A DNA stretch of 60,470 nucleotides, filler included, from Hausera hauseri (lineage: Eukaryota): NCBI GenBank assembly GCA_046269625.1. It is 10 parts of 10 records of this genome, joined end to end, with 100 filler letters (N's around TTAATTAATTAA, not from the genome) between each part and the next. Parts side by side here need not be neighbours in the genome. Positions count along the whole stretch, not along the records: positions 1 to 8,897 come from JBJURY010506574.1; 9 more parts are not named here. One strand, 5' to 3'. Shown here one piece after another: positions 27 to 59,147 of the stretch (position 1 is the first letter of the stretch; each line of letters starts with the position of its first letter). The translations under genes were made by a program, and so were the position numbers. The notes under the pieces were generated by a model, which had not been told where the DNA came from, ran no database searches, and worked only from the letters and a program-made list of their open reading frames with translations.

Positions 27-1493
27 TTAAATTTGGTCGGTTTTAGTCATCTTATGTGTTCTTCTAAATATATAATCATATAAGGAAGGTTTCTTCTTTG
101 GGTTTTGGATCGGTAATTCGATCTTTTCCTTTTTCTTCGGAATTCGAAAGATCTTGAAAATTACGTTTTTGGTCAATTCTTCAGTCGATTTTTCGGATTT
201 CCTGTAGCTGGTACCGGGTAGTTCACTTAAGGTAATTTGAAGTGCAGTTATCTTCAAATTCTCCGTTTTTGTAATTTCGTCAGTTTTATACGGTTAATAC
301 TGTTTCCGGTACTTTCTATTTATTCTGTCTGGATTCGAAGAACTACATAAGTTGCGTTCAGGGTTACGAGGAACCCGTTCGTGTTCCCACTTAATCCGGC
401 ATAAATATCTCGGAGATATTGGGTGCGTTGGCTTGCTGTTAACATTTTACTGACCTTGATGCGGCCATTACTCATGGCATCTACTACTAGCTTGAAGTAA
501 GCGTCCGTGATTCTCGGCATCGGGTAGTCACTTTCCCGTAACTATTTCTTCGTCCATTCGGCGATATCAGAGTGCGTACCGAGCTCTCTTATTCCTGAGA
601 GTTTCGAGTAAGGAAACTCCAATAGGGTTATAACTTCCTCCACACGGTATCCAGCAAGGATGTATCCGTAGAGACAATGTTCTAATTCTGTTTGTACAAC
701 TCTGATGTCCTTCCCCTTCCTAAGGTTTTCTTTACGAATTCCTGTTTGATCATAATGTCCCTCTGACGCGTTTCCTAGGGCTAATAATTGTATGGTATGT
801 TTCCATTCCATTTGTTTCTCTGACTGAAACCTCCAGCAGAATTTTCTCCGTTTTACTCCCTTCGTCACAGTTGATGGCTATAATTCTTACATTTCTGGCA
901 TTTGGTACTAGTCTATATGAGTACAAAGAATCTTCTAATTCTTTTTATAACGGTTTCTGCTGAACTTTTAGGGACGGCAACGGATCATGGGATTGTTCAT
1001 CACATGTTACTTCAAACATCGTCTTGACCGGAGAAGCGGCAACTGGGAATTCTAATTCATGATTTTGCAGATCTTCACTCCGTAATTTAAGAGTACTAAA
1101 CCTATATTGGCTTTCGTTTCCCGTGCTGCACTCTTGGTCTCGGAGCCGGTAATATATTTCGCCATCGGCTAGATGAACATGTAGGTTCCGGCCGAATTGG
1201 TAATTTATTAAGTGCTTGAGTGAATAAGCCTTGGCGTCTCGGTCTTCTCTCAGGGTATAAAGATAGATGACTCTGGCTTCTTCTTTGGTGCACTTTAAAT
1301 TATTCGGAATGGTATGAACCTGATCATATTTTACGGCTGCTCTCCCGTGCAGTTCGTTACGGATTTCTTGATAAATAAAATTAGAGTTCATGATAAGTAT
1401 GGTAGCGCAATCCTGTAAAAATTCGTCGATACTACATCGGCATCCCAAAAGGACTTCTTTTTTTGGTTCGTCGATGCTACATCGTCCGGCCAT
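27..1493 (-). pseudogene. Orphan 3' accessory ORF (~490 codons when reconstructed), copy A
   Basis: Track ORFs 945-1493, 542-868, 320-520 and 27-257 read through single stops or frameshifts. They are homologous to 39124-40408 and 28027-29502 (shared YLRDIY.AL.W.HE motif). Confidence 0.7.
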
Positions 1494-1589: not shown

Positions 1590-3030
1590 TCAGGTTATTT
1601 TATCATATAGATCAATAGGGGCTTCCAATTCCTTTAGTTCCAACTCTGTAATTTTAGGACGCTTAGAATGATAATTTTTGGCAACTGACCGAAAAATCGG
1701 AATTAGTATAATGAGAACAAACGTTGATAGCACGACAATGGATATTATCGGTAGTGTTAATTCCATTGGGGCTTGTGTGGTGACTGGAGTTGTGACTTCG
1801 TTGTCTATGTTTTCGTATATATACGATTCTGAACGAATTTCGTCTAAGGTACGCAATGCAATTGTTTGATTTTGTTTATTCTCTGCATATACTTGTACTT
1901 TGTAATCGGATCGTGGTTTTAACAAATTGCATTTTGTCTGATAAGTGTTTTTAAATAGTGTTACAATTTGCTTATTATACGTTGTTCGGCAGCTTATATG
2001 TATATCGTAATTTAGTTTTTCCTATACAAAGAACACAATTTTAAATCGATGTGCCGAATATTTAACAGGTACACTTTCTAATTCTCTTCTAGGTCCACTG
2101 CTTGATGTAACGGGTCTCATAATGGCACTAACTCGAGTAGTCGGCTTTTCGGTTGTCGTTTCTATTGGAATCATGCATATTCTATTCTTTGGCTAATAAG
2201 TTCGCGGATGTTTGCTCGGTTTATTCGGTCGTACTTCATATAAGTCAAATTTTATTTTGAATTCATGGTTTACTGGTACCTTACAGCATGTGTATTGCAC
2301 ACAGGCATGAACGGAACAGAATTTTATTTTCGGAGTTTTTCGTCTACTGCTTCGAAAACAATACTAATTTTTTGACTAATTGTTAATCCTGTTCGAGCAT
2401 CTACTTGGATGCATTGTTTTCCTTGGTATACTAAGATCTCTTTGATATTTTCATCTTATAGCCTTATATTTGCGTCGGTGGATTGTAGCATTTCGTCGAG
2501 TTTCACTTCGAATTGTCTAGGCCAAGTGGGAATGACCAACTAAAGTCGTTGGTTTACTTCGATATAAACTTCTGATGAGCCTGGTAAGTATAGTCGAGAA
2601 GTAAAGATGTAAACATGTTCATAATTTATGTCGCAGCATTGTGTATAATCTCCGGGTTCAAAATCGCGGTTTTTTACTTCTTTTGTTGTTACATCATATG
2701 GTACAACTTGAAATCTTCCGAAATCGTGATGCGGTGTCCAAGTTTTAAATCCGACGCACACAGAGTCTGGCGAAAAGTAATGAGCCTTCATTGATTGTAT
2801 TAAAATAGTGTCTTCTCGTTTTCGGATCTCTCAGGCCGTTGGTTTCGTTTCCATTATAGTATTTATAGGCTTTGATCTGCCTTTCCGAATTCCATATACG
2901 TCTCCTAGCATAGTTCTATCGTCCCACCATTGAGTTTGTGTTCTTGGAATGTAAGATGTATTTAGTGATAGTGCTAAAACTATCTGAACGTATGATATCG
3001 GTCTAGCAATTATTGAGGAAGTTTTTATCT
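1590..3030 (-). pseudogene. Type-I membrane protein: signal peptide, two Cys modules, FN3-like domain, Thr-rich stalk, TM, short tail
   Basis: Hydrophobic ISYVQIVLALSL in frame after IN; LKPRSDYKVQVYAEN matches the FN3 L.P.T.Y.V.V.A.N signature; TM LPIISIVVLSTFVLIILIPIF; tail ends YDKIT. Confidence 0.7.
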
Positions 3031-3059
3031 CGCGATGACGTAAATTGCAACGTTTATTG

Positions 3060-4200
3060 GGCCGTATCTCCGCCTTAACGAGTCTTTGTACTGATACGAC
3101 TTCTTCTTTGCCGTTTTTGTTAATGTACACTGTGGTTAGTGTAGTTCTGGTAATTTCGTACGGCCGTCTGCCTGTACGAGTCAATTTTAATGATGTACCT
3201 TTCTTGTCTACTGGATAATTTACATAAACCCAATTTTCTTGTTCTAAGTCATGCGGTTTCGCTTTCTTATAATATTGCTTTTTAAACTGTTCTTGATATT
3301 CTTGGGACATTCTTGATATTCTTGTTACCTAAGTCTGTGGATAACACAGCTTCACGTCCATACATCATGAAAAATGGCGTAAATCCTGTTGCCGGATGTG
3401 GGGTGGTATTAATTGCAAATTGAGTTCCTTCTAAAAATTGGTCCCAATCACTTTGGTTCTTAGCTACTACTGTTGATAATATGCGTCTGACAGTTGCATT
3501 CATTCGTTCAACCATTCCATTACACTGAGAGTGATGCGCGGTAGTAGTTAACTGTTCGATTTTGAATATTTTGGTAATCTTCTTGAATAGTTCACTTGTA
3601 AAATTTCTTCCTCAATCTGTTAATATTTGTTCTGAAGGTCCATATCGCCAAATAGTTCTTCTTACTACTACTTTGGCCAAGGTTTCTGCCTTTTGGTCGA
3701 TTAACCCTACCAACTCGACAAAATGAGTCAGCCGATCAATACAAGTTAAGATGTATTTATTGTTTTTGTGAGTCGTAGAAAGCGGTCCTACGATATCCAT
3801 TGACATGGTTTGCATAGGTCTATAGGGTACATTAACTGGTTTTAATTCCGCCATGTAATTCTTTGTCTTCTTTTGTTTAGTTGCCCATACTTCACAGGCA
3901 TTTACCCAATTTTTTTACATCAATATAAATGCTTGACCAAAAGTATTTGTTCAATATCCTTTCTAATGTTTTCTTCCAGGACATGTGTCCTGCGAAATAT
4001 GAGTGGTGTACCGATATCAAAACTTTAGTTCGTAAGTTTTTCGGAATGACTATCAGTTTTCTTCCTTTTCGCTCAAAATATAGAAAGTTTTCGAGACCCT
4101 TGTTGTTTGTAACACAATATTTGTGTCCATGTCGACGCAGATGCTTCTTTAATTGTCGTCCTTTTGGTATTATATCTTTCTTAGTAAATTCTATAATCTG
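3060..4200 (-). pseudogene. Integrase (HHCC, DDE core, GPY-like C-terminus)
   Basis: MDIVGPL..NKYILTCIDRLTHF, ILTD, VERMNAT, WDQFL..FAINTTPHPATGFTPFFMMYGRE, KL..GRRPYEI. Confidence 0.93.
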
Positions 4201-4209
4201 CCGGATAAT

Positions 4210-4756
4210 TCAATCCCTTCTTTGTTCGGTTGAGATTTTAATCGCTTTATCCAACGTTAAGGCACGTTGGCAATCTATTATTTTTTCAAGCTGATTTTTC
4301 TTCATTACAGTGATTGCATTTGTTTGGGTCTTTAATCTTGATAGTGTATCGGTATCTACATGTTTATTTCCTGGCTTACATTGGAATTCGATATTGCATC
4401 TAGAAATTTCTACGATCCATCTGTTAAGTCTACATGTCGGGTTATCTGTTCGCCATTTTAAAGTCGTGACGGCTTTGTGATCAGTGACAATTATAACTTT
4501 CTGCCTGTACACGTAAACGTTGAAGTGTCGAAGCGCTTCTTTTACAGCTAGTTTCTAATTCAGTAACAGAATAATTTTTCTCGGCTTTCTTCAAGGAACG
4601 TCCTCCATAAGCAATTGGGTGTTCTAATTCTTCATCTTCTCTTTTCTGCGCTAACTCATAACCAATGCCTTCCTTAATGGCGTCTGTCTTGATTATAAAA
4701 GGTAAGCTAAAATCTGGATATCGCAAAACTGGTTCGCTTGTTAATATTTTCTTCAT
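4210..4756 (-). pseudogene. RNase H (Ty3/gypsy)
   Basis: PVLRYPDFSLPFIIKTDA, PIAYGGRSL, NYSVTELE, TDHKA, RLNRW, KPGNKH. Confidence 0.92.
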
Positions 4757-4792
4757 ATCATCAAAAGCTTTCTGTTCAACGTCTGTCCATTT

Positions 4793-5569
4793 CTATTTAA
4801 TTCCTTTTTTAAGCAAGCGGTATAAGGGTGCATTAATTTTCGAGTTATCCGGCATGTAAGTTGCGTAATATCCGCATAATCCTAACCAGTGCATTAGCTC
4901 TTTTTGATTTTGTGGTTCCATACAATCGGATATTTTGTTCAATAACGATTTATCTGGTTTCAATCCTCCTTCGCCAACTATATGACCTAAGTAGGATATG
5001 GCGTTTTGGGCCCATTTGCATTTCTTCGGATTTAATTTCAAACCAGCTTGTTCTAGTCTCATCAGCGTATGTTCGATATCTTTTAAGTGTTTCTCTTCTG
5101 TTCTCGATGCTATCATCACATCGTCTAAGTACGCAAAAGCATGATCCAATCCAATTAACATTTTGTTCATCATCCTTGTATATATGGCTGGTCCGGTAGT
5201 AATACCGAAAGGCATGACATTAAATTCATAAACGCCATCATGAGTTTTGAATGCCGTTTTATAGCGGTCTTCGTCCTCCATCTCTACTTGCCAATATCCG
5301 GATTGTCAGTCTGGAATGGTAAACCATTTCGCTCCTGAGAGTCGGTCTAACGCCTCTTTGACCGACGGTAGTGGAAAAGAATCCTTCATCATAAGATTAT
5401 TTAAGGCTCTGTAATCAATACAAAATCGATGTTTCGTGGTACCTTTCTTCTTAACCATGAGGATTGTTGAATACCAAGATTTATAGCTAGGCCTGATTAT
5501 GTCTGCATTAATCATTCGTTCGAATTCTTTTGTTATTTTGGGCCTTAATGAATGCGGCGGGGGTACCAT
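4793..5569 (-). pseudogene. Ty3/gypsy reverse transcriptase
   Basis: RFCIDYRALN, FPLP, KTAFKT..YEFNVMPFG, AYLDD, KLNPKKC, YLGHIV. Confidence 0.95.
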
Positions 5570-5970
5570 TTTGGCATCTTTTGGTCTTCCAAATCTGTTT
5601 TCTCGTTTGACCCTGGCTTTTTCTTGAATGGAATAGTTAGTTTTAAGGCTTTCGCTCTCCCGATATCTTCTTCGTCTTTTGCAATAATCGATTTATTTCG
5701 GCATAACAATTCGTAGAATCGACAATAAGACTCAGGTGAAAATTTAGTTTCGACACGAGGTGGAAATTCGGCATTCTTGTAAGGTTTTCCTTTGATAGTT
5801 ATTGACGATACTCTATACGTGTCTCCTAAAGTAGTATAAGCATGGAGCTTGACAGGAGTTTGCGCGTTATTAGCTATTCTGATTGGTACTCGACCGGAGT
5901 CTACTCTCGTTAATACATTGCTGAGTAATATATTCGGATCTAACATATCTCTTGGCTCAAAATATACTGG

Positions 5971-6400
5971 TTAATTGTCATCTTGCTGTATCTGGGCATA
6001 AATTATAATTTCTGTTCTTGGAGGAATGTTTTTGTCAACTGGTATCCACAATTCTCCAAATTTTCTATCCTTAGCATTTTTCACACCTTTTTTGGACCTG
6101 ATTTCTATTAATTTTCCTGTTTGTAAGACGATTGCTATATTTGGTAGCCTTTTCAGTAGATCACATCCTAGAATGATGTCATCCGTTAATTGTTCCATAA
6201 TTGCGAATTTATGATGAAATGTTTGCCCAACTATTTGGACTTCTGAGTTCCATTTAAACATTGGTTTTGACATTTGGCCAAAAGCTCTTGTACTTCCTGG
6301 GTCTTTTGCAGATGGAGGATATAATTGTCCTCTTAGAGTTTTGGTATTGAATCATTTTAATGCAAGACATTTCCGATCCTGTATCGATTAAGGCATAAAC
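5971..6400 (-). pseudogene. Retroviral-type aspartic protease
   Basis: VYALIDTGSEMSC at 6400-6362 (DTG at 6385-6377, not in the ORF track); DIILGCDLL downstream. Confidence 0.9.
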
Positions 6401-6990
6401 TTCCCAATTTTCAATATTGATTTTGGCGAAGGGTCTCCTTCTATTACTGTTCCGAAACAGTTCGGTGTATCCTTTGAGAGTTTTGCCCCTGATAATTTGT
6501 GTCCATTAATTCGGATTTCAAGAGAGGATACTATATTCTCCGATAATTGTTTTAATTCTTCATTTGGGTATAATTCGTTGATTTCTATGTGTACTTCTTC
6601 CGCTTCATGTGTACTGATTAGTGGTTCTCGATTATTAGTATGTAATTCAGTATTCTGGAAAGTTTTTAACCATGGATTGTCCCAAACCATTGATCGAGTT
6701 TCTATATTCCGAGGTTTTCTAGGGGAATACAACATCTTGGGACCATCCGTGGATTGTCGGTAACACATTTTCCGTAGAATTCCGTAACGCTTTGTTCCCT
6801 CATAAGGATCTTCTACATTAATTGTTCTTTTATAGATTTCCGTCTGATATAAACTCATGGATTGTTTGTCGCAATCTTCATAGAATGGAACTGTAGGAGG
6901 TAACATGGGCAATGGCGCTTTAACGACAGAGTACATCTTATGTCTATTTATTCCTAAAAGTACTTCTTCTTCCTTAGGGTCGTCATCATC

Positions 6991-8897
6991 TTAATTATTT
7001 CTTCGTAAATTGGGTTTTGAAAGTTTCTGCTTCCGCAAGAATATGAGTCTTCCTTTTCGTTTACGATTGTAATAGTCAACATGGCGTTCTACGTCCGATT
7101 TCCATCTATTTTCTTCGTACGCTTTCAAAAATTTTCCAAAAGGCGTTATGATTGCCGTCAATACCTTACATGAAAATCCAGTCAATGTAAATATTTCATA
7201 ACCACTTATTACTGCTTGGATGACTGCTTTAATCATCTGTATCAAGAAGTATATCGCTAAAAATCCGGATGCAGTTTGTCCGAATATCAGAAATTTTCCC
7301 AACATTTTGTAAGGTATTTCGGTTGTTACTCGCTGATAATGATTCACACCGAGTAAAGATTCCAATTTAGCTTGATATAGGGTGTCGTCTACTACCCACG
7401 CCATAGCTCGGTTTAACTCGTGTGCTCGTTGTCGTGGAAAAGCAAGGAATTGTCTGAAAGCCTCAATTTTTTTCGGTCTGTATATACCTTTTGAGGAGGT
7501 GTCTTAAAATTTGTCGTCAATTTATTTGGAGCGACAATAATACCTCCATTTGGCAAACTAACCCAATCTGTCTTACTACGTCTAAACATAGGTTCTCCTA
7601 AGATTGCCTTACAATTTTTAAGAATGGTCGGTTGGGTAGCGTTATCCAATAACACTTTCGTCAGCGGTGTAGCCAATCTCGGAATATTTTGGTAGATAAC
7701 AGGAAGTTCCTGGATGCAACGTTTTTCTTTTACGTTGATGGGTACATCTCTCTTTTCACATTCATAAGTTAGCAATACCTCGCTTGTAAACCTACCAAAA
7801 ATTCCTTCTTTCATGGAAATTATCGGAGAAGCTAATTCTGGGTTTGCATATATCAGAGCCATTTTAGTTCTCATAATTTGTGTATCCAATTTGCAGTCAT
7901 TCATTATCATTTTGTGATATAATTCTGTTATTCCAACTTGTCCTTTATAGTAGAAGAAATCATCTCTATTTTTCAAGTAATCTTCGACGCGGACATCCTA
8001 TGTTTCTAACTTATAAGTTTTCGCACTTATCTCCGTTTCTGCGACAAAAAACGCTTCATAGTTTGTGACAAACATCACTACATTACATGGAGAGATCATC
8101 TCTTTTTTAATAAACTTCAACCCATGTTAACCCGAAATTAATATAGTAGGTGTAGCGTGTTCCAATACATCTTCACAGGTCCTCGAATTGGATTCTGATT
8201 TGTCCACATATCGTTTTCCTGTAGTCTCATTGAACTTTAGTTCTTTAATTTTAATAAAATTACAATTTCTTCCAGAAGGAGGTTCCCATATTATCACCGA
8301 GCTTCTAAAAGCACAGGTTACATCTTGTAAATGACATTTCTGATTTTTAGTGTATAACTTAGTGACATTATGGAACATTACCTTCTGTGATCGCATTTTT
8401 GATTCGTAAAAATCCACAACCACCACATTTGATTTTAATCCTTTTCCGGTATCGTATTCGGCTCTATTACAATGTCCACTATGCATATCTAATCTTCTGG
8501 CTACTACTTTTTATGCCCTGATTATTTTCCCTGGCTGCATCTCCAATTGCATACTATCCAATTGTATTCTCCCAGTTTCCTTGGCTTGCTTGCAGTGTTG
8601 ACGTTCTAAGTTCATCGGAATTAATGGGGTTCTTGGTTTGATTATAGATGAGTGTCCATGAATCAACCCACAGTGAAAAATTCTACGTGATCGTTTCAGC
8701 ATGCATTCCATTCCATTTAGCCATATCAATTCTTACTGATGATACTGAAAATAATTTTTCTCTTTTGTCTCCAACTTGTGTGGTCTAGCATCATCGCATG
8801 CTTCCAGATCCATTAGAGAATATCTCTGTCCTAGCTTAAACTTATCGCAGTCGTAGACAGTTACAGCGTCTATATGCTTTATTAGCACCATCAAGGT
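6991..8897 (-). pseudogene. env: Chuvirus-like / herpes gB-like class III fusion glycoprotein (env)
   Basis: One frame from 8897 reads TLMVLIKHIDAVTVYDCDK..YSLMDLEAC..CMLKRSRRIFHCG..VIIWEPP..C..GIFGRFTSEVLLTYECEKRDVPINVKEKRCIQELPVIYQN..PLTKVL..C. After a frameshift near 7410 comes a hydrophobic C-terminal segment FLIFGQTASGFLAIYFLIQMIKAVIQAVISGYEIFTLTGFSCKVLTAI. This Cys/motif pattern is what I recognise from chuvirus-type glycoproteins carried by retroelements. Confidence 0.8.
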
Positions 8898-8997: not shown

Positions 8998-11910
8998 ATT
9001 CTTCGGATAATCCGAGGTATCCATATGTTGGGCCAATTGGGCAATGTCCTTATAAATATCATCTGTATGGATCTGATAGACAAAACTATCAGTATCCATA
9101 TACATCAGCTACATGGACTTGGAGACTTGGGGACCATGATGTCATAATGGAATTGATACATCAAGGTGTTTGACAGATTTAATATTGCCATACCCACATA
9201 TATGGGCTTATTGAATACCAAGGATATTTTCAGCATATGGATGCTGACAATGTTCTCAGTATATATGGTGCTACTGTGGAAGTTAGGCTTGGCAATAAGC
9301 TTCTTTGCCCGCTTTCACTGAGAGACCAGGTCGATGTTGATCCTGTAGCGGATATTCTCCACCGTCTTGCCAAAAACGCTGTTGTTGTAAAGCTTGAAGT
9401 GATCCTTCTCAAATTCGTTCTTGGCATTTGTCCGCAACTTGGTATTGAGATCTATGTAGAGCTGAAGCCACATGGACTGGCTGAACTGCAGAGTTCTATG
9501 GATCTTTGTAATGCGGAGTCCATGTCTAAGTGTCTGCTGGAGATTGATGTAATGGACTACATACCTCTCCCTATTACCCAGATGACAAAGCAGCTTTCTA
9601 TGCTTTCCATGGGGCGGAGGTCTGCTCTAAGGGAGGAAAGGCAGCTGTTGATGCCTTGCGTGGATAGAAGCCGGATATTCCATATTCACCTCAAGTATGT
9701 AGCCCGTATCTCCAGTGGGATCCAGATCCAATATAGGAATGTTTTCAGGATTCGCGACCCATTTAAAGTTATTATATGGCAATGGGGCGCTCATTACATA
9801 TCCATACAAGTTGTTGGCATTCAGGTATGATATATATGATGATTTCTTGGATGAATCATACTGGACTATATACTTGTTGTTGGCCTCGCTATACCGATGA
9901 ATGGCTTGGCATATTTCGCCCCTAATGCCTCTCTCGATCGTAAGGATCATGTCGTAATCCTTAATGATCTGCAACCTAATACCAGTATATCTCAGCATAG
10001 CTGCCCAGCTCATACTTAAAACCGTAAAGAAATGAGCCAAATCCAATGCATGGCTCTTCATTGTAATATCCCTGAAACTCTCAAAGACATCTGTCAGAAG
10101 AAACACGTCCGTTTTGAGGTATACGTTGCTGTATTCCCCTATTGTCCTGTAGTTGAATGCCTGCCGGACATTCTGAGCTTGCTGATAGTCCTCATTATTA
10201 ATATCACGGTTCGACAACTGGCTATAAAGTCAATTCTTTGGCAGTAATTATGTCTCATCTAGTGTTTCCCATGATGTTATATAGTCGTGGGGAAACACTG
10301 CTTTCCTTTTAACTAGGTCAAATTTAGTGGGAAAGAACCGCTTGGTCTCCTTGAGTTCTTCGTCAGGGAGGTTCTTCATTAAACTATCCTGTAAAGACGA
10401 CATGAAACGGAAACTGTCTATGAAGCGAAGCTTGATTCTTCCAACATGCTTAATGAAAATAATGAATTTTTCCTCACTATTGGGAAAGATATCAATGTTC
10501 CCATAAATGTTGCCCAGTTCCCAAACAATGAAGGGGGAATCATATCCACAGAGATTGTAGAACACTACATGCACACATGTGAATATTTTGCAACGCAGAT
10601 TGCAGTTGTTTCATGCTGCACCTCCATATTTGCCTGTAAAATGGCAATGATCCATGACTTTATGATTAGTAAAGGACATATCGCACAAGTAACATGTTGA
10701 TGCCTTGCGCCATTCTTCTTCTTGCTGCTTCGACATGCTCATATTATCCTTATGCTGAAGCATATTTTCAAGCCTATGAGCCATGTCTTCAAGTCGTTTC
10801 ATGAAATGTGCTGCTGCACCTAGACCTCTGAATGGAAATGGTTCATTGTCCAGTCATTTGGCATACATGCAATATGATGAGAGTTCATTATATTGGTGTG
10901 CCGTTGTGCTACTATGTTGAAGATTAGGGCTGCAGCTGAGAATTGGCCTGAGAATAGCTTCAAAGTCGCCTTCCCAAACTCCTTGAATTCAATGTAGTCT
11001 TCCTTGGGGAATTCTGGCCTGATGGAGTAATTGTTGTTACAGTACATCTTGTGCTTCTTCAACTTCTCCACAGCTAACTTGCCGCTGAAATGGGAAAAAC
11101 ATCGTTCGCATATTTCGATTCTTGTTGTGTATTTATAATTTGGGATCTGACTAGACGTTCAAAGTTCTTGATTCAAACATAATGTTTCTTTTCTCCATCG
11201 TTTAGCAGGAACCGATCCCTATGATCTTCCAATTCAATGTCGCATATATGCAGGGGATAGAATTAGTCCTCGTCATCCAAGCCAATGATGTTGATAGACA
11301 CGTTGTTGATTCGACTGAACTTTTTGACTTCATCTATGGATGGAGGGAATGTGATACACTGGAAGTCATAGTTGTGCTGCACATCCTTATATAGCCAAAT
11401 TCAATCTGTTGCATGTTTTGGATCCTGTACGAATTTACATAAAATGGCATACATAAAACACTTGTTGTCATCATTAAGGACATTAATGCATGCCTTTTTA
11501 TTAACGATCCATTCTGGAAGTTGTATATAGGAGCTGCCCCGCATGGGAGAGTAATTGTGAACATACACAAGCAATCTCTTGATGGTTGCCAGAGTCCATC
11601 CGCTCTTCTTACGCTGGCTCTCATCGGCTTCACGGATCAGCTTCGCATGCTCTTCATGCAGTTATTCTGCTATATTGGCGTTTTCCAATATGGGCCTACT
11701 TTTGGTCTTGAAGGCTCTATTGGATTCTTCGCCATAGACATTGATGTATGTAACCTCCAGTTTCATATTAACCTTAATGGCCTTGAGCTCAGCTATGTTG
11801 TCCTGGTGAATTCCTTCTGTTTCTTCCTTTGTATATTTTAAGAACTCCGTGACGGTTGTTTGGTCAGTTGTATCAATAACATATCTACGGCATTTTCTCT
11901 TTAATGCTGC
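8998..11910 (-). pseudogene. Polinton/Maverick/adintovirus-type protein-primed DNA polymerase B
   Basis: INVLNDDNKCFMYAIL (OTU-like region), TCYLCD..DHCHFTGKY (endonuclease VII-like insert), RFIDSFRFM, YLKTDVFLLTDVFESFR, YLNANNLYG (motif A), KLYNNSVFGKT (motif B), YMDTDSF (motif C). Confidence 0.92.
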
Positions 11911-26759: not shown

Positions 26760-29503
26760 TCAATCTGGTTCCAACAGATGGTTTAAGGCAAGTAAACCCG
26801 CTAAAGGCCATGTAAAATTTCAAATACAGTTCACAGACAAAATAAATGATGTAACGAAAATGTGTGAATTCCAATACGGAATACAGCCGAAATGTTGCGA
26901 ATTGGACTTCGGACAAACAGACAAATACAAATTTCGTATGTACTATTACAAAATTCTCGGAGTCCAAACGGACGTAAATCTGCAGTTCGAAATAGCCATG
27001 CCAGGACAAAATAGAACAAACAAAGCGGAAATTAACAATTTAATTCAAAGTACTTACCCACAAGACAAATCTTGAATGATAACATAATCGGAATCTTTAA
27101 GGGCATCAAAAATAGATGTATTCAGATAAAAACCAAAACAGAATTAACGGGTAAGAGACAAATTTCCATTCGGTTCATGCCAATAAAAAGTCATTCCCCC
27201 AGTAAATTATTGTTACGTCGGATGTGATAGAACCAATCCATGTTGTAAAATACCAATGAGTCACAAATTCAAAATACAGTTCGATCTATAAAAAACCCGA
27301 CACAACGAACCAAGTATTTATCTAAGTAGCTATTATCCGAAAGATCGAGTATAGAAAAATCCTTTTCCAGTAATTCCGAGAAAACCGTCTTCTGTTTCAT
27401 GTACAATGACTGTTACTAATATCGTCACTTCGAGTAAAATGCCTGAAAGAGAATTAGAAAATATACCTTTTAAATATTTGAAGCACCACTATAAAATTGT
27501 TTTTCGTTGAGGAAAAGTTAAACTACGATATTAAGACCGAATGCCGCACCTTACACACCAGTCAGACAGTAATATTAAAAAATGGCAGCCACGAAACCAA
27601 ATGTAAACTATTACGACCACAACAAGACTATGTAATTCAAGTCTTTGCAACCAATAAAAAAGGCAAAACTTTTACGCTACGAACATTGAGCGAAATTCAT
27701 GCAAAACCCTGTGTATATTAATACCGAAAATATGGTTACCACTGAAAAATCAACTGAACTAACAACCTTGCCGATAATATCAATTTTCGGTTTGTCAACA
27801 CTTGTTATCATGATGATAATTGCGACTATTTTATTAATTTTCAAAAATTGTACTAAGCGTTGTAAAAATCAGAAGGTAGATATTAGGGTGAAAGTGTACC
27901 GAGACGAAAATAACCTGACAAATGCAGATCGAGATATCCTATCATCAGAATGAGAAAATATTTCATTTTGAAACGATGATCTGCCTTAGGCTTAATCTTT
28001 ATTTCTTTATTTTTAGAAGTGTAAATATGGCGGAAAAGCCGAAATTATCAGTTCAAACCAAAAGAGAAGACACTATGTTGAAGAATTTTTCCGTGAACAT
28101 GTAAGAGTATTAATGCCAATTCCAAATCCCTAAACCGCCAAATGAACACAGAATTACAAAACAAAACATTCCTAGAAATTAACGAAGAAAATAAAGTACT
28201 AAACGAACTAAAAGGAATTACGGAGGAAAGTTGAACTATCCGATTACATGCAATGGGAAATGACCCAAACGCTCGTATTTATGCGCTGAAATATCTGATA
28301 AATTACGAAACAGGCAACAACTAACAAATTTACATTCCCCTGGTAGAAGGCGAACTAAATTATAGAATCATCGAACAAACTTGGGACCTTAATCAATGCA
28401 GACAATGTAGGTTAAGCACCTTTAGTCTCTGCAGTGGTAGTTTTGTGCAAATGCGAACTAGAGTTTCGGATTATTGTAGTGTCAACAAAGATTATGTTCG
28501 AAATTACGTACGAAGATATACTTTTCGTCATCTTTTCCCCATAGTATCAAGAACTGCCATTGGAAAAGATGTAGAACAACATATAATGACGATCTACTAT
28601 CTAGAAAATGAAGAAGGCTCTTATGTTCCTATTGAAATTTCAAACCAAGAAATAAACAGAAAGAAAACACTTTCCAAGATTATTGCGCCTTGGGAAAGAG
28701 TCTGGGAAACTTTTCTGGACTTCACCGGAATTGAAAGGGAAAATCTCATCGAAGGGAGAGATATGAAAATACTTAAAGAAGTAAATCATGCAATATACGG
28801 GTGCATAATCGTTGGATATCAAGTCCAGAATGTGGGAGAGAAGATGTATATTAGACTCGAGAACATCGCAGGGATACGCGAAATGGATATACACTCGGTA
28901 GTTACGAAATAATTAGTAGTCACACTACAACAAAAGAATGGCTGTTTGCCCCTAACTGTAGAAGCTGGGTTTAAACTTATGCTAGAAGCCATGAGTGCTA
29001 AATACGTCCATATATAAAAACTATTATCAGCGAGATAGCGCAGTCAATACCTCCGAGATATCTATGTAGCTTTAAATTGGAACCATGAATGGTTACCAGA
29101 AAATTCGACACAGAACCTTCGAAGTAGAACTAACCTAGAAATGTTGAGCCATAAACACAGAAAAAATTACCGCGCTTATTCCAAAATATGAATTATTAAC
29201 CCCACGGAGGGAAACAATTTCCATGTCACTATTCCCACGCGGATAGAACGGAAACAACTCGACAACTCAAGGACTGCCTCGGAAGGAATAAATAGGCCAA
29301 GCACCAGTTATGGAATCAATTCAAAATTTCAATGAGCCGCATATCAGAAGAACGACAATTCAAAATACCAGAGGTTCCAAAGAAAACAAAGAAACTGAAG
29401 ATTGATGAGCCTCTCAAAGAAAAAAACGGAAATCTTTCTACGACTACCTCATCGGAAGAAAAGACAAATCCAAGAAGGAAAGGCACGAATCCCTCCATAT
29501 AAC
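26760..29503 (+). mobile_element. Copy C (more divergent) of the 3' cassette: FN3 membrane protein + orphan ORF
   Basis: CEFQYGIQPKCC; CYVGCDRTNPCC; CKLLRPQQDYVIQVFATN; TM LPIISIFGLSTLVIMMII; YALKYLINY; QYLRDIYVALNWNHEWLP; FKIPEVPKK. Confidence 0.85.
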
Positions 29504-29603
29504 NNNNNNNNNNNNNNNNNNNNNNNNNNNNNNNNNNNNNNNNNNNNTTAATTAATTAANNNNNNNNNNNNNNNNNNNNNNNNNNNNNNNNNNNNNNNNN
29601 NNN
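29504..29603. other. Artificial contig linker
   Basis: N44-TTAATTAATTAA-N44. Confidence 0.98.
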
Positions 29604-30392
29604 TGGATCATAATCTGCCATGTATTTGTTGTTGGCCTCACTGTACCTGTGAATGACCTGGCAGATTCCGCCCCTGATGCCTCTCTCAACCATGAGGACC
29701 ATATTGTAATCGTTCAAGATCTGGAACCTTATGCCTGTATAGCGCAGCATCGCCGCCCAGCTTATTCCTGGAGCTGTAAAGAAATGGGCTGGATCTAACT
29801 TGCGACTCTTAAGGGTCACATCCCGGAAGCTTTCGAAGACATCTGTAAGCAACAGCACATCTATGAGGAGATAGATATCACTGTATTCCCCTATTGTCCA
29901 GCATTGGAAGGTCTGCCATACTCTTTGGGCGTGCTCATAGTCAGCATCGCTAATATGACTGGATGACAACAGACTATAGAAGTCCTCCTTGGCCGGTAAT
30001 GCTTCTTCATCCAGTATCCTTGAGCTCATCAGCTGGAAGATTCTTTACGAGGCTGTCCAGTGACGAGTTCATGAAGCGGAAGCTATTGATGAAGCGAAGT
30101 CTAATGCGGCCCACATGCTTCGTGAAGGTGATGTACTTCTCACTATTTGGAATCACATCAATGTTTCCCTCGATATTACCCTATTCTCGAACAATGAAGT
30201 GTGAATCGTATCTACTAAGATTGTGTAATAACGCAAGAACATATGTACATGTCTTGCAGCGTAAGTTGCAATTGTTGCACGCTGCGCCTTGGTATATGCC
30301 TGTAAAATGGCTGTGATCCCTGACTTTATGCTTGTCTCATGTGAATGGCTTTCTGCATAAGTAACATGTTGCTGCTTTGTGCCTATGGTGTC
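29604..30392 (-). pseudogene. pPolB fragment (exonuclease/EndoVII region, with internal deletion)
   Basis: DVLLLTDVFESFR, LDPAHFFTAPG, ERGIRGGI; continues the fragment at 32500-33950. Confidence 0.9.
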
Positions 30393-32500
30393 CACAGCGG
30401 CCGGTGCCTTTTGGCCAATTTAGTCGGGCACGGCCGGGCCTCCGTTGCCACCGCGTCGGGCCCATAGTTGGGCCCGATTCCGCGCCTCGAAAATTTTCCT
30501 AAATTTGTCGACAGGAGCAAGCACCACTGAATTTTGATTATATTTTGTAATGGTTATATTAAACAAATACCTGTAATATAAGATCTGAAGAGAGCCATAC
30601 TAGAATTGTTCAACTATACTGTGAAGAACTATCCAACGGTGTATATCTGTGCCATTTGGCCAACATTCTCATTTCCTATAGCATTCCTACCGTCTATACG
30701 TCCAGTCCCGGTCAGCGTGAATTAGGAAAACGGAAATCAAGAAAGAATTTTAAAAAAATACTTTTTGGAAACTTGTCGACGAAACGGTGTTCCTGAAATC
30801 TGCAATCGAGGCTTTCTGCACATCATGAAACATCTCAAAACAAAATCTCTAAAACAATGCAGTAGAAAACAACCAAATCGTTCCTCACATTTAAATCTGG
30901 ACTTTACCAATTTCACCAAAACGTTTCCTGCAAGTTAGTCTCATATCGAAACCATTACAAATGAAAATGGAAACTCATCCCATCTGCCATCTGCCGATTA
31001 TGAAAGCGATTCAGAAAATGCATTCACCGAAGAGTATAATAACAGTCCAAAATCCCAGCTCAACAACACAGAAGATTCTATGAAAGAACAATTAACACGT
31101 TCTGATTTGGGTTACAATACTCAATGAAACCCAAAAATCCGAATTTGCTCAGAAAGAAATTCCAAAATTTCCGGGAAGTCAAAGACGATAAAATACATGG
31201 CAATTTGGCGGCTGAGACGAAAAATGAAACGGGCCCAACGATGAATCTGTATTCACCAGATGGAATGTCTAAAAAGAATCGAAATTATTGGTCTTTGAAT
31301 ATGACAAGTGCTATGCTCAGCTTTTATCAGACATACAGACCATCACGCTTCGGTTTTAACCAAAAGAATAATGATAATATCAAAAGTCGACGAGCTAGTC
31401 TGCCTGATGAGAACACTGACGAATATGATACAGCGAACGTGGCCGAAGCCAATTCTCAGTGTATTGTTATTGTAGATAACTCAACTTACGATATGGATAA
31501 ACCAGCTAATCTTTCTGCCGCTATTTAAAAGCAGTCAAACAATAACAATATATTAAGAGAGAGAGTTCCACAGTCCTATCAAATCACCCACATCATCAGA
31601 CTATCACAAACCAGAATACAAACCAAAACCCAGACTAACGAATAATGTCAGACGTTTTAGCATCGACAGAACAACTGGAAACAATATCCAAAATCAAGTT
31701 CATGAAACGATAAAGAAATTTCATAAAATTATCGAGGCCCAATTACATGTACAGATTAACTCTAAGAAACTCTGTGATTCAACAATCTCTGATTTATCTA
31801 AACGTCTACAGGCTTTTATTTTTAATGTCTGGGAGGGAAAGGAAGACATTCTCAAGAAATATTACTCACAGACCGTCAATACAAACAAACCGTGACTTTT
31901 CATCGGAAGAAATTGATCTCAATAATTCCGATTTTTCTAGATTCTTATTTTTGAAACGAATGACTAGCAATTCGATTATCTATGGCAACGTAATTTTCTG
32001 TATTGTTTTCTAATTCCATTTTTATTCGTATTTTTGTCACTGTTTAATTGATAATTTTGTGGGACATAATGGATTAGTGCCGTGTTGTATATGTAAATAA
32101 TGTTTTGGCAATTTGTTTAAAAAAAATTTAAAAAAATTTTACACGTTTGAATTCGAACTCTTGTTGAGCCATATTTAGCGTAAAAATTCCTTCTTGGTTT
32201 AATCTTACAATTATCAATCGAAATTTGCTTATATTTGGAAATTTATTGTTTCAGTTTCTATAAGCGTGAACGGTGTGATCATATTTCAATTGTTGCTACG
32301 AATTTGCATATTTGGCCTATTTATTGTGTATTCAATAGTTGGTTGATTACAAGGTTAAAGAAACAATGCAAGTCGCAATAAATTCGTTCGGAGCTGGTGT
32401 ATACAGATGTCATCTTATTTTCGTGCAGAAGCGAACAAACCAACATCGGAGTTTAATTTGTCCATTTATAAGACCTAATAGTGCCATTCACATTTTTCTT
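30393..32500. mobile_element. ~2.1-kb insertion splitting the pPolB, with a GC-rich palindromic left end
   Basis: pPolB reads ..LQQHKGYMVM on the right side and ..HKAATCY on the left side. Left end starts CACAGC and contains TCGGGCCCA-tagt-TGGGCCCGA (30456-30477). Confidence 0.55.
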
Positions 32501-33950
32501 GCTGGGACATCACCATGTAGCCCTTATGCTGCTGCAACGTCTTCAAATTTGTGGGCATACTGTTCCAGACGCTACATAAAATCTGCTGCTGCATTTAAAC
32601 CCCTGTATATGTAGGGTTCTTTGTCCAGTCCTCTGACATACATGCAGTATGATGATAACTCATAGTACTGGTATGCTGTAATACTGCTTTGCTGCAGATT
32701 GGGGCTGCAGCTGTGAACTGGGCTGAGGATGGCCTCAAAGTCACAATATATGACAATCGGCACGTTCTGCATCTTCTCGAACTCCTTGAATTCCAGGTAA
32801 TCCTCCTTGGGGAATTCTGCTCAGCTGCAATAGTTTGTATTGCAGTAGGTCTTGTGCTTTTCCAGCTTTTCTGAGGCTGTCTCAAATAAAATGGGTAATG
32901 CATCTTTTGCATATTTCTAGCCGGGATTTATGCTTGGATATTTGAGATCCTACGAGGCGCTCAAAATTCTTGACCCAGATGAAATGCCTCGTTTCTCCAT
33001 TATCTAGCAGAAGCAGATCCCTATGATCCCCCAATTTTTCCTTGCACACATGTAAGGGATAAAATTTGTCCTCCAATCCGATGATGTTGATGGAGATGTT
33101 GTTTACGCTTTCAAATTTCGCGACTTCATCTAGGCTCGGCGAGAATGAAATACAGCTGAAGTCGTATGTGTGCGGCACTTTGTCATATATGAAAACTCGG
33201 GAAGCATTATGTTGATCCTGGACTAGTTTTGATAAAATAGAATACATGAAACACATGCTGTCCTCATTATGGGCATTGATGCATGCCTTTTTCTTAACAA
33301 TCCATTCAGGAAGCGGTATGTAGGAGCAGCCTCTCATGAGAGAATACTTCTGCACATGCACAAGTAACCCCTTTATTTTTGCTAATGTCCAACCGCTCTT
33401 CTTGTCATGGCTTTCTTCGGCTTCGCGGAGGAGCCTTGCATAGTCCTCTGTAATGAAATCATTAATGTTAGAGGATTTTAATCGTGGCCTGTTCTTTATC
33501 TTGAAGACTCTATTAGACAGCTCTCCTTTGACATTGGTGAAGGTGGCTTCTAATTTGAAGTTCACGTTAAGGACCTTCAGCTCCAACAAGTTGTCCTGGA
33601 GAATTCCTGCTGCCTCCTTTTGAATATTCCAGGAATTCATGGAGCGATGTTTGCCCCATTGCTGTTATGAAGTATCGCCGTACTTTGCTCTTCAGTGCAA
33701 CTACATGAACTGGTCGATGCCGTTGACTTTTTCTCGATACGTTATTCGCTGCCTGGGATGCAGGGCGTTGTGTTGAGGTTGATGCTGCATGCGCTGCAGA
33801 TGTACAAGGCATGACAGGAACAATGCCTTCCATCTGTGCAGATAAGGTTGGTATAACTGGAACAATACCTGCCATCTGTGCAGGTGTTGAATGCATAAGA
33901 GGAACAATGCTTGTCTTGAATATGGCCGTTTTGGACTTAGCCGTGAAATC
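32500..33950 (-). pseudogene. pPolB N-terminal part (terminal-protein/OTU-like region)
   Basis: SGWTL, GCSYIPLPEWIVKKKACINAHNEDSMCFMYSIL, HFIWVKNFERL, VIYCDFEA. Confidence 0.9.
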
Positions 33951-34091: not shown

Positions 34092-36150
34092 TGCTGTAGT
34101 CAATACGGTTGTGGAGAGTGGCCATGATGAGTGATGATGTGGCCTAGGAAATTAACAAGTTTTTGAAAGAAGTAACACTTGGAGAAATTGACTTGTAAAT
34201 TGCTGTGATGTAGTCTGTGAAAGATAATATCGAGGTGTTCTTGATGTTGCTTAACAGATGTGGAGGCAACTAATATGTTATCAATGTCTGGATGAGCAAA
34301 GTCAAGACCTGAGAGGATGGTATCAATGTGTCGTTGAAAAGTTTGGGAAGCACTACGTAAGCCAAATGGCATAACGATATATTCATATTGGCCAAATGAA
34401 ATAATAACAGCAGGTTTTGGAATGTCATCAGATGCAACCGGAATTTTATGATAAGCTTTATGCAAATCAGTTGTGGAATATGTATTAGTATTGGTAAGAC
34501 TGTGCAGAATATCCTTTATGAGAGGTAAAGCGTAAGCATCCAGAGTTGTTAGGTTGTTTAACTGCCGGTATTCACCACCTGGTCTGTAAGTGCCATCTTT
34601 CATTGTTACTACATTTAATGGTGAAGCTCACGGTGATTTTGATCTTCGAATAATACCAGCCTTTTCGAGTTCAGTGAACTCTGATTCAACGGCTTTTCGC
34701 CTACAAGGTGACAGTGGTCTGACCTTTTGTCTGATACGTCTTTGGTTTTCGGTGACTATATTGTGATAATTTGTAGAAATCGGCTTGAAATCGCCGTCCT
34801 TTTTAAGAGTACGGAAGCAAGAAGTTGTGATGTGGGATTTAAGATGGATTCCGGCGATAAGAATGAGTGGCATATTGGATGAGCCAATGGCTGTAATTGA
34901 TGTAGAATGACTGGACATGCCATTAATGACATTCGGTTCAACTGATTGTTTCAAAATTGACTTGGTCCAACTTGATTAAATTGAAAATATGGATGAGTTA
35001 TTAAGCGTATTGTTATCAACAGGCAAACAGCATCTCAAATTGACATTTCAATGAACAGAGGAAGGCAAGAAGGTATCCAACTGGTATCTACAAAGGAGTT
35101 TCTACGCAAGAGACATCCATGCTTACAGTCAACTAACAGATCGTACGCAGCCAGGAAATTGAAGACTATTATGGCGATCTAATATTGACTACGTGAAATT
35201 TCCAAGAAAATTTGCCTGGTAGGTTGGAGAATGTGAAAGACAATTTTGTGGTACCTACAATGAGTAAGGGTTGACCACAGGCAGTGAAGAGTGGAGGAGA
35301 AAAAACAGTATTAGATGTAGTAGCGAAGGACAAAGGGAGAAGTGAAAAGGCAGCTTCTGAATCGATAAGGAAATCTGTGTGAGGTGTCACCAAATAACAG
35401 TGCAGCTTTCAATAGAAAGACTGCAGAAGCGGTGTTGAAACGGCCAGAAGACTGAACGGTATTGCCTATGCCAGAATATATCGTGGCATCTGGTGAAGTT
35501 GTTCGTTTTTTTATGCTTGTCGGGAAAAAGATGAATGAAAAGAAAACCGAGGAGAAGAAGATGGAGAAAAGCTGAAATATTTTATAATGTTTGCATCCTG
35601 GCATATATGACCTAGCCTTGGACTGATACTTTGTATGATATATACAAATAGTGGTGCCCACTGCAAAACGCTCCTTATAGAAGCGACAGCCTAAAAGACA
35701 CTTTTTTGCGTCTCTGTAAAACTTTTCATGATAAAAACAAATTATTCGTTCGCCTAACGATTTGTTAAGAAAGGAATGCTTAGAGAGACTACGCTCACGT
35801 GAGTGGCGGGTCTCACCTCGTCGAGATGCAGCTAATGTATTTAGCTGAGCTGTATTGGCCGAAATTTAATGTTGCAGGGTCCGATCCACCGGATACGAAA
35901 GTGGAGAGTAAGGTAGATAATTGGAGAAGAAAAGGAAGAAAGTCTATCATAGACTTTAAAGACAGAGCCATGATACGATAGATAAAATTCTGAGGTATGA
36001 AGCAGGAAGTATAGATGTGTGTAAAGATATTTTGCAGTCTCTGTGTCGCAGTGAACATATACATGTGCTTTTTATTAAAAGAACAAAAGGGAAAAGGGAT
36101 GTAGTGCAGTAGGCGCCCTCGGTCCTTCAACGAGACAATTCCTTCGTTGT
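34092..36150 (-). mobile_element. Degenerate Ty3/gypsy element, second family (gag CHCC knuckles, PR, RT)
   Basis: ICFYHEKFYRDAKKCLLGC and ICIYHTKYQSKARSYMPGC; FLIDSEAAFSLLP; GIIRRSKSP; VMPFGLRSASQTFQRHID; FLGHII. Confidence 0.88.
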
Positions 36151-36464: not shown

Positions 36465-38955
36465 GATTTGAATCACCACATGCACTTAATAATGACGGTA
36501 TAACCACTCTCGTAAACCGTTCAGCGTCCTTCTTGTTCAGACCTTTACAAAACACCTCAACGGTAGCCACCGCCAATATTTGATAACCTTGTTGACATCA
36601 CCGCAATTTCTCTGCAACAGGAGTGATCGTGTTTTATAGACCTCCTCCCGACATACATGGTGTATTTTCAATGATTTTCAATATATCCTCATAGCCGTCT
36701 TTCTTTACTTTCCAATTGATGAAGAAAGACAATTTGTTTAACATTCCTTCTGTAATCTTTCCACTGATATTTTCACGAAGAATGAGATCTTCAACTTCAA
36801 TGTCAACAGAAGCGGCGGTATTGTCCCCGCCGGCATCTTCTTCATCTACACCAGCCGCTATTTTATCAGTCTTTGGACCCTGAGTCGGAACTGGTGCATT
36901 CATCGCTTTCGTGGACTCAATAGCTTGATAAATTAATTGTTTTATTGATGACTTTTCATCTTTCAACAAAACCCCAATGGCATCACGCATATGAAATGGT
37001 ACCGATTATCGAATAGCTGGATTTGTATGTTGAATAGCTAATCGAATAAGCAGATCTTTAGCAACCAGTTTGAATCCAAATTATTTTATTGCTTCATTAA
37101 GCCAATTGACAGCTGCAATGAGATTTTTTATGTTACCATAATCAGACGCCGTTTTTATGACCAGACTAGAAACAAGACTCAAATTGAAAACATCGCTCAT
37201 TTCTGATAGAATACTCTTAACATTTTTGCTATTTTTAGCATCGCCAATCTTTTCCGTTAACTCGGGAATGCATACCTCCGCTGCAGTTCCTACAAATTAA
37301 CCTGTTTTAACAACAAGAGCCGAATTAATAATTGACAAGGTAACTCATTTCCAGATTTCTCCTTTACAAAATATTGAAATCTCTCTACGGCCTCCAATCG
37401 CTATTTCCAATTGGAAGAGACAATCTGTGTCATGAATGCCTCATAAAACACCAGTTCCTCGATAAATCACGTCATCATTGGACAGAAGAGACTCAGTAGT
37501 TGCAACAGAATCTGTCTGTTCTGCCATTGCTTTGATGTAAAATACCTTTATTCGCACCATTTTAACGGCATCAATGTTTTCAAGACACGGCATCAAGACC
37601 TTTTCCGAGACAACTTTCATCGCAGTGCCGAATGTTTGAAAACAAGCGTCACGTACTTCGGGAACACTGTCCAAACAAGTGGTAGCGAGAGGAGTAACGA
37701 GACTCTTCAGATTCTTTTTTGGCAATGTTTCTTTGGTGCTCTTCTCAAACAACCGATTCAAAACTAAGACGGCTTCTGATCTACAATTAGGAGTTTTATG
37801 GGAAAGAACATTGGTTATTTCTTCAGTGAACGAATCGAGTGTGGTAGTTTGAATAGCCGCGTCAACGCAGCTTCGTAAGGCTTGTACGACATTTGATCTT
37901 TTTTCATTAAATTTCTCCAAACACACTTGTATCGTCAATACAGCATATGCAGAATATTTCTTTCGTAAACCAGTAGCAATCTGACACATGATTTTTGCGC
38001 CTAGACAAACTAGGACGATATTTGTATCCTTCGCAACAACCTTCTGAAGTATTTTAATCAATTCCCCATAATCACCTGGTACGAGTTTAGATTTATCAGT
38101 GACTTTGTCAACAGACTCCAGAGCATCTTTATGATCGGTCCATTTTTTCTCTTCAATTTTTGTGTAGAAATCTGCGGGAATTTTCGATAACGCATCAAAT
38201 GGCTCAATAAATTCGTACGGATCAATGTAATCATTGACAGCAGACTTTGAAACAACAGTGCCACTGTCGCTGCTGTTTGCAACTGATGCTGAACCAGCAC
38301 CCGTTGCAGATGGAAGAACTTTTGGTTTTTGAGATCGTAGATATCTCGTCGGAATTGGTTTTTCATTAGGCAACTTTTCAAATTCCGCATTCAATTCCGT
38401 AACATGAATGGCCTTCAGTTCATTCATGTGATTTTTCATTCCGGGTATTCCAACCCATCGACAGATTTCTAATATCATTTCTATTCCAGCGTCTCGAACA
38501 CTTTTATCTCGGTCTTCTAACAATCGTGGAAGCGTTTTAACCATTTCTTTCATCGGTACAACTGCCGGACCAAATTCACTTAAAGATTGTTTCAAAATTA
38601 AAGCTGATCCAATAATAACTTTCGGCTGTTTGCAATTTAAACCCTTAATCAATTCTTCACCAACAACATCTTGTTTTTCAATTTCAATGAACATTTTTAA
38701 AATATCGGTTCCGAGGCCTTTGGTTTTCTGACGAATAGAATTCAAACATTTATTGACAACTCCCGGACAAATATCAGAAGCGACTTTCGAAGCAACATTT
38801 GCTTCTTCAACAAAATACATAACAACTTCAAGAGCTTTTTCTTGAACCACAACATTGCCGTCAATTACCATTTTCTTTACTAATCCTAAATACTGATTAA
38901 AAAGCGGCTCTTTGGGGCTATCGGCTTTTTTCATTTCTCCTAATGCTTCTTCATT
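36465..38955 (-). pseudogene. CKAP5: XMAP215/ch-TOG/msps family, intronless truncated pseudogene (TOG1-TOG2 intact, TOG3-4 decayed)
   Basis: DGNVVVQEKAL, IEIEKQDVVGEELIKGL..KQPK, EDRDKSVRD, PTRYLRSQ, IDPYEFIEP, KIEEKKW, VVAKDTN, CLEKF.EKR.NVVQALR, DSVPEVRDA; later SSNWK*RLEAVE with frameshifts. Confidence 0.9.
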
Positions 38956-39023
38956 TGTAGGTAAACGGAAGATATATAAATGAATTCCCGCAATTTTACA
39001 ATGAATGCATTTATCAATGCATT

Positions 39024-54349: not shown

Positions 54350-55402
54350 CTATTAGAAGAAAAAGCAGTACGTCCGTCGTTTGTATTTGATTTGAAAGTG
54401 CAGCCCGGAATGCATTTACGAGCCTAATTTTTGAACCTTGCATGGTAGATGCAAACAACGGTGTCTGAGGAAAAACACTTGTTTAAAAAATTTGCTCCCT
54501 AGGCAGCATTTCTGAGCATTAGTGTTGAATCTGCTGTGGTAATAGCAGATCGACGAACGCGCAAGCCATGGTAAGCGGTTTCTAGACGTAGAGCGAACGC
54601 GGTCAGCGACAAAATGCCTCCGGCGGGACAGGGTGAGTTCGCGTAGTTTATTACTGATATTGTTGATTGTTGCGTGTAGTGCAATATTTTCAGCACGTAG
54701 CTGATTAAGCTTTTGTTCTATTGATGTGTTATTGGTATATATATCGTTAGAGGCAACTACTGCTGAAACAACTGGTGGGGAATTTACGTGTAGGACGTCT
54801 TGTGTCCTATCGGCTAATTCGGCCAATTTCTCAAGAGGTGTGGAGTCCTTCACTATGGTAAGTATGGCCCGGATTTGGATAGGTAGCTCACTGAGCAAAT
54901 ATTGGCGCAGTAGGTCTGGATTGTGTTCTTTAGTGACATCGAGGGTATGTAGATGTGCCAAAGAGGTGCGTAAGAATTCTGATGGTCGTTGGATGCCTAT
55001 AACATTGTCGTGGAAGAAACGTTGTATGATCGTGTCCATGGAAGGTTCTGTGATCATACGAACTGCGTTGAAAAGTTAGGAATATGGGCTGGGAAGTTCA
55101 AAGATTTCAGTGACGTTGTAAATGCATGTTTTGATGTTATTAACGAGTAAGAAGAGAAGATTATGTGCTCTAGTTAGAGTCAGTAATGTTATTTGCCTGC
55201 AGCCATAGTTGATGAAATTGTAACCAAGTTTTGCTGCAGCCTTGGTTGTCAATAAAGCATTCGGTGCATTAGGGAAAGGAGCGGAAGAGGTAATGGATGG
55301 AAGATTACTAGCAGGGGTAGAAATGGGTTTTTGAAGCCTTATAACAGATTTTGGTTTCCTGGTGGTTTTATCTGTAGTGTATATGGTTGGCGAAGAGTTC
55401 AT
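54350..55402 (-). mobile_element. gag: Ty3/gypsy gag remnant, same family as 34092-36150
   Basis: QRPSEFLR, LLRQYLLSELPIQIRAIL, LEKLAELAD, ICYYHSRFNTNAQKC, and a second knuckle VCIYHARFKN*ARKCIPGC. Confidence 0.82.

Positions 55403-57905: not shown

Positions 57906-59147
<1,242 letters not shown>

Follow-up and report, generated by a model that had tools for sequence, protein, structure and literature searches.

Evidence for a decayed Ty3/Gypsy-type element with a class III envelope directly ahead of pol in Hausera hauseri

The analysis of a 60,470-nucleotide stretch of Hausera hauseri DNA (the window; 10 short contigs with N spacers between them) identified what is very probably a broken copy of a Ty3/Gypsy-type element, with a class III env directly ahead of pol, relatives in which the two are fused, a gag that likely lies beyond the contig end, and junction breaks that are probably decay. 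The env-protease locus is present on the minus strand of the first contig (1-8897). This contig ends at 8897, in a hydrophobic segment that lies ahead of env in the relatives, and its other end falls inside the 3' accessory region. The gene order was determined by three-frame translation and Pfam analysis, and runs on the minus strand from env through a 200-codon linker to the protease, reverse transcriptase (RT), RNase H and integrase. The order of the pol domains is that required for Ty3/Gypsy (Metaviridae). The features were as follows.

7518-8897, minus strand: Env ectodomain, class III (chuvirus G/herpes gB fold), with four in-frame stops, truncated at the contig end (PF24664, model, Foldseek)
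6994-7503, minus strand: stem of Env, followed by the membrane anchor (7293-7237), a further hydrophobic stretch (7194-7138) and a basic tail (PF24664 positions 474-603, hydropathy, tblastn frames)
6991-6993, minus strand: in-frame TAA within the env tail, taken as decay (translation)
6436-6990, minus strand: open linker from the env tail to the protease, non-Gag, with a Tyr-Pro motif (LYP at 6573) (stop counts, Gag profile, Pfam, Atlas)
5590-6433, minus strand: aspartic protease and the next domain, with shifts near 6435, 6345 and 5588 and one stop (RVP, gag-asp_proteas, tblastn)
3910-5587, minus strand: RT, RNase H and integrase zinc finger, interrupted by stops and shifts (Pfam, identity to relatives)
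3041-3914, minus strand: integrase core and C-terminal part (rve, E 1.8e-12; tblastn)
1590-3040, minus strand: second membrane protein after the integrase, broken (hydropathy, fn3, weak homology)
100-1493, minus strand: downstream accessory ORF, broken, with an approximate 3' limit (kept in three copies)
39124-43654, minus strand: second family copy on another contig, from RNase H to the accessory ORF (77-79% nucleotide identity)
26782-29403, plus strand: third, more diverged copy, with the second membrane protein and accessory ORF (tblastx)

The env matched PF24664 over 8897-7413 (E 1.6e-32), with E 6.5e-18 on the stem half (Pfam positions 474-603). A fold model of 8897-7518, built with stops read as X from an alignment of 120 sequences, had a pLDDT of 90.9 and a pTM of 0.69, and contained a long central helix (304-351). 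By Foldseek, the best solved-structure matches of the model were all herpesvirus gB (PDB; E 1e-11, TM 0.27-0.52), and the best viral matches were chuvirus-type glycoproteins (BFVD; E 3e-28, TM up to 0.73). The env profile also matched gB by sequence (E 3e-4). The sequence and the predicted five-domain fold confirm membership of the class III fusogen family, and the chuvirus/gB-like env of the first-pass annotation was thereby borne out. Chuvirus-type glycoproteins, those of mosquito BEL/Pao elements included, fall in this fusogen family too (PF24664); they are stand-alone genes and ~20% identical, whereas the env here probably belongs to a Ty3/Gypsy polyprotein.

The placement of env 5' of the protease also held, with the class III env (8897-6994) preceding the motif VYALIDTG on the minus strand. 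The reading of 8897-6991 as a single frame did not: the env contains stops at 8735, 8513, 8129 and 8000, and a frameshift near 7510 parts the stem frame from the ectodomain frame (tblastn frames). Hydropathy analysis showed two hydrophobic stretches at the C-terminal end of env. The catalytic Asp codon of the protease motif lies near 6385, and the two protease halves matched RVP (E 0.009) and gag-asp_proteas (E 0.23) in Pfam. The domain that follows occupies the position of the Burro dUTPase-like domain. Pfam matches in 3910-5587 were RVT_1 (E 1.9e-36), RT_RNaseH_2 (E 5e-25) and Integrase_H2C2 (E 2.6e-11). The RT is 41-47% identical to that of the relatives and, in a tree without a named Burro sequence, joins five of seven unnamed env-pol polyprotein RTs (support 95/98) on a long branch.

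Longer env relatives were sought first with a word index, which gave none; a full HMMER env search over 1.84 billion proteins then gave 319 matches, 17 of them at E<=1e-30. An aspartic protease follows env in one stop-free record in 11 of these 17 best relatives (in P0007 at E 0.002 only), of which five reach the RT and four the integrase. The same holds for P0151, a cluster mate of P0006 with 4,844 residues. The remaining records end inside the ectodomain (4/17) or just past the env anchor (P0004 and P0017), and these six therefore either say nothing on an env-protease fusion or speak against it. A CCHC knuckle was present upstream of env in six of the 14 relatives scanned, the other three of the 17 being env sequence only. 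In P0013, the knuckle, env, protease, RT, RNase H and integrase are all in one frame, and P0015 additionally has a Retrotrans_gag match (Pfam). Identity to the relatives in env is only 25-32%, so their traits need not all be common to this family. The NCBI record of P0001, the closest intact relative, is a hypothetical protein of a Flavobacteriaceae MAG, and is probably animal DNA placed in a bacterial bin. Two to seven aspartic-protease-like motifs per polyprotein were seen in P0002, P0003, P0005, P0006, P0014, P0015 and P0151, some of them after the integrase; the window copy has one.

At the env tail, the reading RRNN*DDDDPKEEEV was confirmed, with the TAA at 6993-6991, and the annotated open frame beyond it runs from 6990 to 6391. 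Within 6990-6436 this frame has no stops in 185 codons; the two others have 12 and 18. A comparison of the linker with Gag had been suggested in the first-pass annotation. On a Gag profile built from four relatives, with held-out relatives as controls, the linker scored -0.2 to 1.2 bits compared to 76-111 for the held-out relatives, and thus does not score as Gag. The profile gave no reported match in six frames of the whole window. The linker had no Pfam match, no Atlas match, and no blastp match below E 2 among 153 stored proteins. The annotated absence of a zinc knuckle was upheld, with no CCHC in three minus frames of the first contig. A Gag capsid remnant in the linker was therefore rejected, with no CA or CCHC likeness by profile, Pfam or Atlas. 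The spacing from anchor to protease is ~306 residues here and 131-391 in 12 relatives.

The linker contains a Tyr-Pro motif (LYPNEEL), which lies at the same distance from the protease as the Tyr-Pro of the relatives. With P0151 omitted as a near-duplicate, Tyr-Pro was present in the linkers of 10 of 11 relatives (3.2 expected by shuffling) and the YPx[L/I] form in six of 11 (0.6 expected), although the motif was picked after the sequences had been viewed and the shuffle test is not independent. PPxY and P[ST]AP were not enriched in the linkers of the relatives (1/11 each). Aromatic-Pro pairs are cleavage sites of retroviral proteases, which Tyr-Pro would fit. It would likewise fit YPXnL, an ALIX-binding late domain in the available part of PMC12789967. 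From its sequence and position, the motif is possibly a cleavage site or a budding signal. No description of it for these elements was found in the literature listings, and the figures and supplements of the cited papers may already cover it.

The first-pass annotation had placed a single 1-nt shift near 6400 and had offered an env-pol fusion or a recoded junction. The shift is present; homology to intact relatives puts it near 6435, and it is not single, a second protease shift lying between 6359 and 6327 (tblastn to relatives). The fusion is supported by the intact relatives; recoding is opposed by the unbroken relatives, the breaks throughout the copy, the lack of a heptamer and the variation at the shift. 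As the intact relatives have env and protease in one protein, the breaks here are likely decay. Outside the junction, 12 stops in 2174 codons and seven shifts were counted from 8897 to 1590. Since the copy is broken throughout, one stop and one shift are expected in the junction: its 240 codons give expectations of 1.5 stops and 0.76 shifts, with P 0.41 for both kinds together. The junction is present once in the window, as annotated, with no repeat found elsewhere by blastn. The family is present in one public run, from a single study (X1; possibly the source sample itself). In X1, 10,056 contigs align to 5600-8897; a likeness of 99% or more was seen in 446 and one below 90% in 4,555, and by contig number the family is high-copy. 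At the shift, 18 contigs that make up approximately half of the depth there have a length other than that of the window copy. Whether the shift is common to all copies, a check proposed with the annotation, was thus answered in the negative. The junction breaks are probably decay and not recoding, with the copies compared at the shift only.

A programmed junction, in which readthrough of the TAA and/or -1 frameshifting would lower Pol relative to Gag-Env in the subfamily, would be consistent with the -1 sense of the shift, with its position, which is like that of retroviral gag-pro shifts, with four in-phase heptamers in the frame overlap (one mismatch each), and with the remaining X1 depth at the shift, approximately half, which has no length difference. 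However, no canonical X XXY YYZ slippery heptamer was found in the overlap, the codon after the TAA is GAT, which to our knowledge differs from known readthrough contexts, 11 relatives have no break, the decay rate predicts both breaks, and other copies vary at the shift; we regard programming as very improbable. Only slightly more credible, and still improbable, is a gag that is not in frame (a separate upstream ORF, elsewhere, or lost or supplied in trans), so that the env-pol protein starts at the env signal. No Gag was found in any frame of the window, P0010 and P0017 have no CCHC knuckle in the 350 and 1340 residues before env, P0002, P0003, P0004 and P0006 begin only 130-160 residues ahead of env, and ENV-GAG-POL elements with a short GAG are described in two mites (available part of PMC13524379). 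The contig, however, ends inside the env signal segment, so the absence of Gag here says nothing; furthermore, P0001 has a knuckle upstream in frame and the linker is not a short Gag. The annotated option of a gag upstream of env, past the contig end, is thus supported as probable, a knuckle preceding env in six relatives.

The remaining explanation, an assembly chimera or nested insertion at the env-protease join, is the least credible and was given almost no weight. In its favour, the assembly consists of many fragments, the family has many copies, and none of the X1 contigs spans this whole region. Against this, X1 contigs of other copies (~83% alike) cover 6355-6716 and 6569-6889, and further contigs join 6879 to 7050 and 6943 to 7049; other copies thus tile the linker and join it to env, which argues against a chimera. 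The same order and similar spacing were present in 11 unrelated records, and the Tyr-Pro motif is at the expected place. An env directly ahead of pol in a decayed copy remains our preferred reading.

Downstream of the integrase, hydropathy analysis of the second membrane protein showed a signal-like segment (3019-2963), a Cys-containing FN3-like ectodomain, an anchor (1748-1692) and a short tail. The fn3 matches (E 0.04 here, 0.0075 in the contig-4 copy) were both below the curated Pfam cut-off. The protein weakly matched the same region of P0001, P0002 and P0151 (E 0.0004-0.007 over seven targets), which have the same post-integrase layout. Hydrophobic segments were present in P0001 and P0002 before env, after env, after the integrase and near the C-terminus. 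The figures and supplements of the cited papers, which were available in part, may already cover this protein.

In copies 1 and 2 the second membrane protein ends in DKIT, which departs from the consensus of C-terminal PDZ-type motifs. All three copies share a 14-base block without any difference, between diverged flanks (1600-1493, minus strand; 40530-40410, minus strand; 27950-28030, plus strand), and in each of them a T-rich tract with AG at its end precedes the accessory-ORF ATG by 9-15 bases. From its sequence, this tract resembles the splice acceptor of a subgenomic mRNA. In the first two copies the membrane-protein stop falls within the block and the accessory ORF shares the frame of the membrane protein, and readthrough in place of splicing is an alternative for these two; in copy 3 the block is read in another frame. 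The accessory ORF (1493-100, minus strand; 40416-39130, minus strand; 28028-29197, plus strand) had no Pfam match and no homologue was found. By eye it resembled a degenerate DEDD exonuclease; Pfam, the homologue search and a fold model (pLDDT 36.5) did not confirm this. DEDD exonuclease ORFs occur in rotifer elements (available part of PMC5408684).

Other sequences were noted in the window. Intron-free pieces of the host genes CKAP5/XMAP215 and S-adenosylhomocysteine hydrolase (37441-39021 and 57933-58595, minus strand) are possibly retrocopies; identity between the CKAP5 piece and its four best matches is 41-45%, which did not place the animal host in a phylum. Broken copies at 9000-11000, 29556-33664 and 46908-48557 (-) resembled, by eye, a Polinton-type protein-primed DNA polymerase B, with Endonuclease_7 as their only Pfam match. 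Pieces of an unrelated gypsy family (34100-35865 and 54416-55075 (-)) have an RT 31% identical to that of the first contig, and include Gag-like pieces with CXYH motifs by eye.

The layout suggests how such a polyprotein might work. One chain would thread the ER membrane, crossing it four times. Gag would remain cytosolic, and an internal signal would direct the env ectodomain to the lumen. The env anchor would return the chain to the cytosol (a single crossing being assumed for the two C-terminal hydrophobic stretches), where the protease, RT, RNase H and integrase would hang on the env tail. Past the integrase, a second signal would give rise to the other membrane protein. Cleavage by host signal peptidase would expose the N-termini of both ectodomains. 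The element protease would release Pol, the most likely cut being at the Tyr-Pro that precedes the protease active site by 30-60 residues; this Tyr-Pro may also bind ALIX for budding. Carried by the Env tail, Pol would reach the particle, and the three products (Gag, Env and Pol) would arise in a 1:1:1 ratio with no need for recoding. A more far-reaching proposal, which we consider doubtful, is that these are four-pass, alphavirus-like polyprotein retroviruses in which the budding signal has shifted from Gag to a YP(x)L in the Env tail, serving as both ALIX site and Pol-release cut, so that Env tethers Pol and calls ESCRT, and in which the post-integrase glycoprotein is the attachment partner of the gB-like fusogen.

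The layout itself is already published, and the window copy is probably a member, now dead, of the elements with a gag-env-pol polyprotein. In the available part of PMC6431247, the env of planarian Burro/GYPSM1 lies between gag and pol in a shared frame, which is presented as the first case; Burro exceeds 30 kb, with a ~5,000-residue ORF that carries BIR, BCL2 and ankyrin cargo. Burro has env between gag and protease in one polyprotein, and the window copy has env before pol, with gag probably beyond the contig. Further likenesses in that part are an env akin to the glycoproteins of mononegaviruses, one more domain placed between the protease and the RT, accessory ORFs, and decayed fragments known in D. 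japonica. The relatives resemble Burro in cargo (ankyrin in P0151, a weak Bcl-2-like match in P0004). In the 8.9 kb covered, from which the 5' half is missing, the window copy differs from Burro in having a single protease and in showing no BIR, BCL2 or ankyrin domain by Pfam, and it has a second membrane protein after the integrase, which is absent from the available part of the Burro account (PMC6431247). The available part of PMC11410931 merely names Burro. As no named Burro sequence was compared, the element is called Burro-like and not Burro.

A continuous gag-env-pro-pol ORF is also said to occur in nematode endogenous retroviruses, the host and clade of which probably differ from those of the window element. 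For these, a flipped order of ENV and POL is given (Sacco et al. 2022, as cited in the available part of PMC13524379). That source (Chary and Hayashi 2026) describes GAG-ENV-POL 'ancient errantiviruses' with an HSV/gB-type env in Platyhelminthes, Nematoda and Bryozoa, nine of them in flatworms, and the window element shares with them a Ty3/gypsy pol, a gB-type env and env before pol. By eye, its env domains I-II were closer to six Schmidtea 'C1a' rows than to ten Bryozoa rows in the available part of supplement 2. Those elements are intact, whereas the window copy is dead; in its available part the source does not state one frame for the three genes, and there the main text has no mention of fibronectin or frameshift.

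With this finding, another high-copy family joins those of gag-env-pol design, and its odd junction probably requires no recoding. The puzzle of this design is how Gag, glycoprotein and Pol would be made 1:1:1 out of one membrane-threaded chain, and both the Tyr-Pro motif and the membrane protein after the integrase may serve as testable handles on it.
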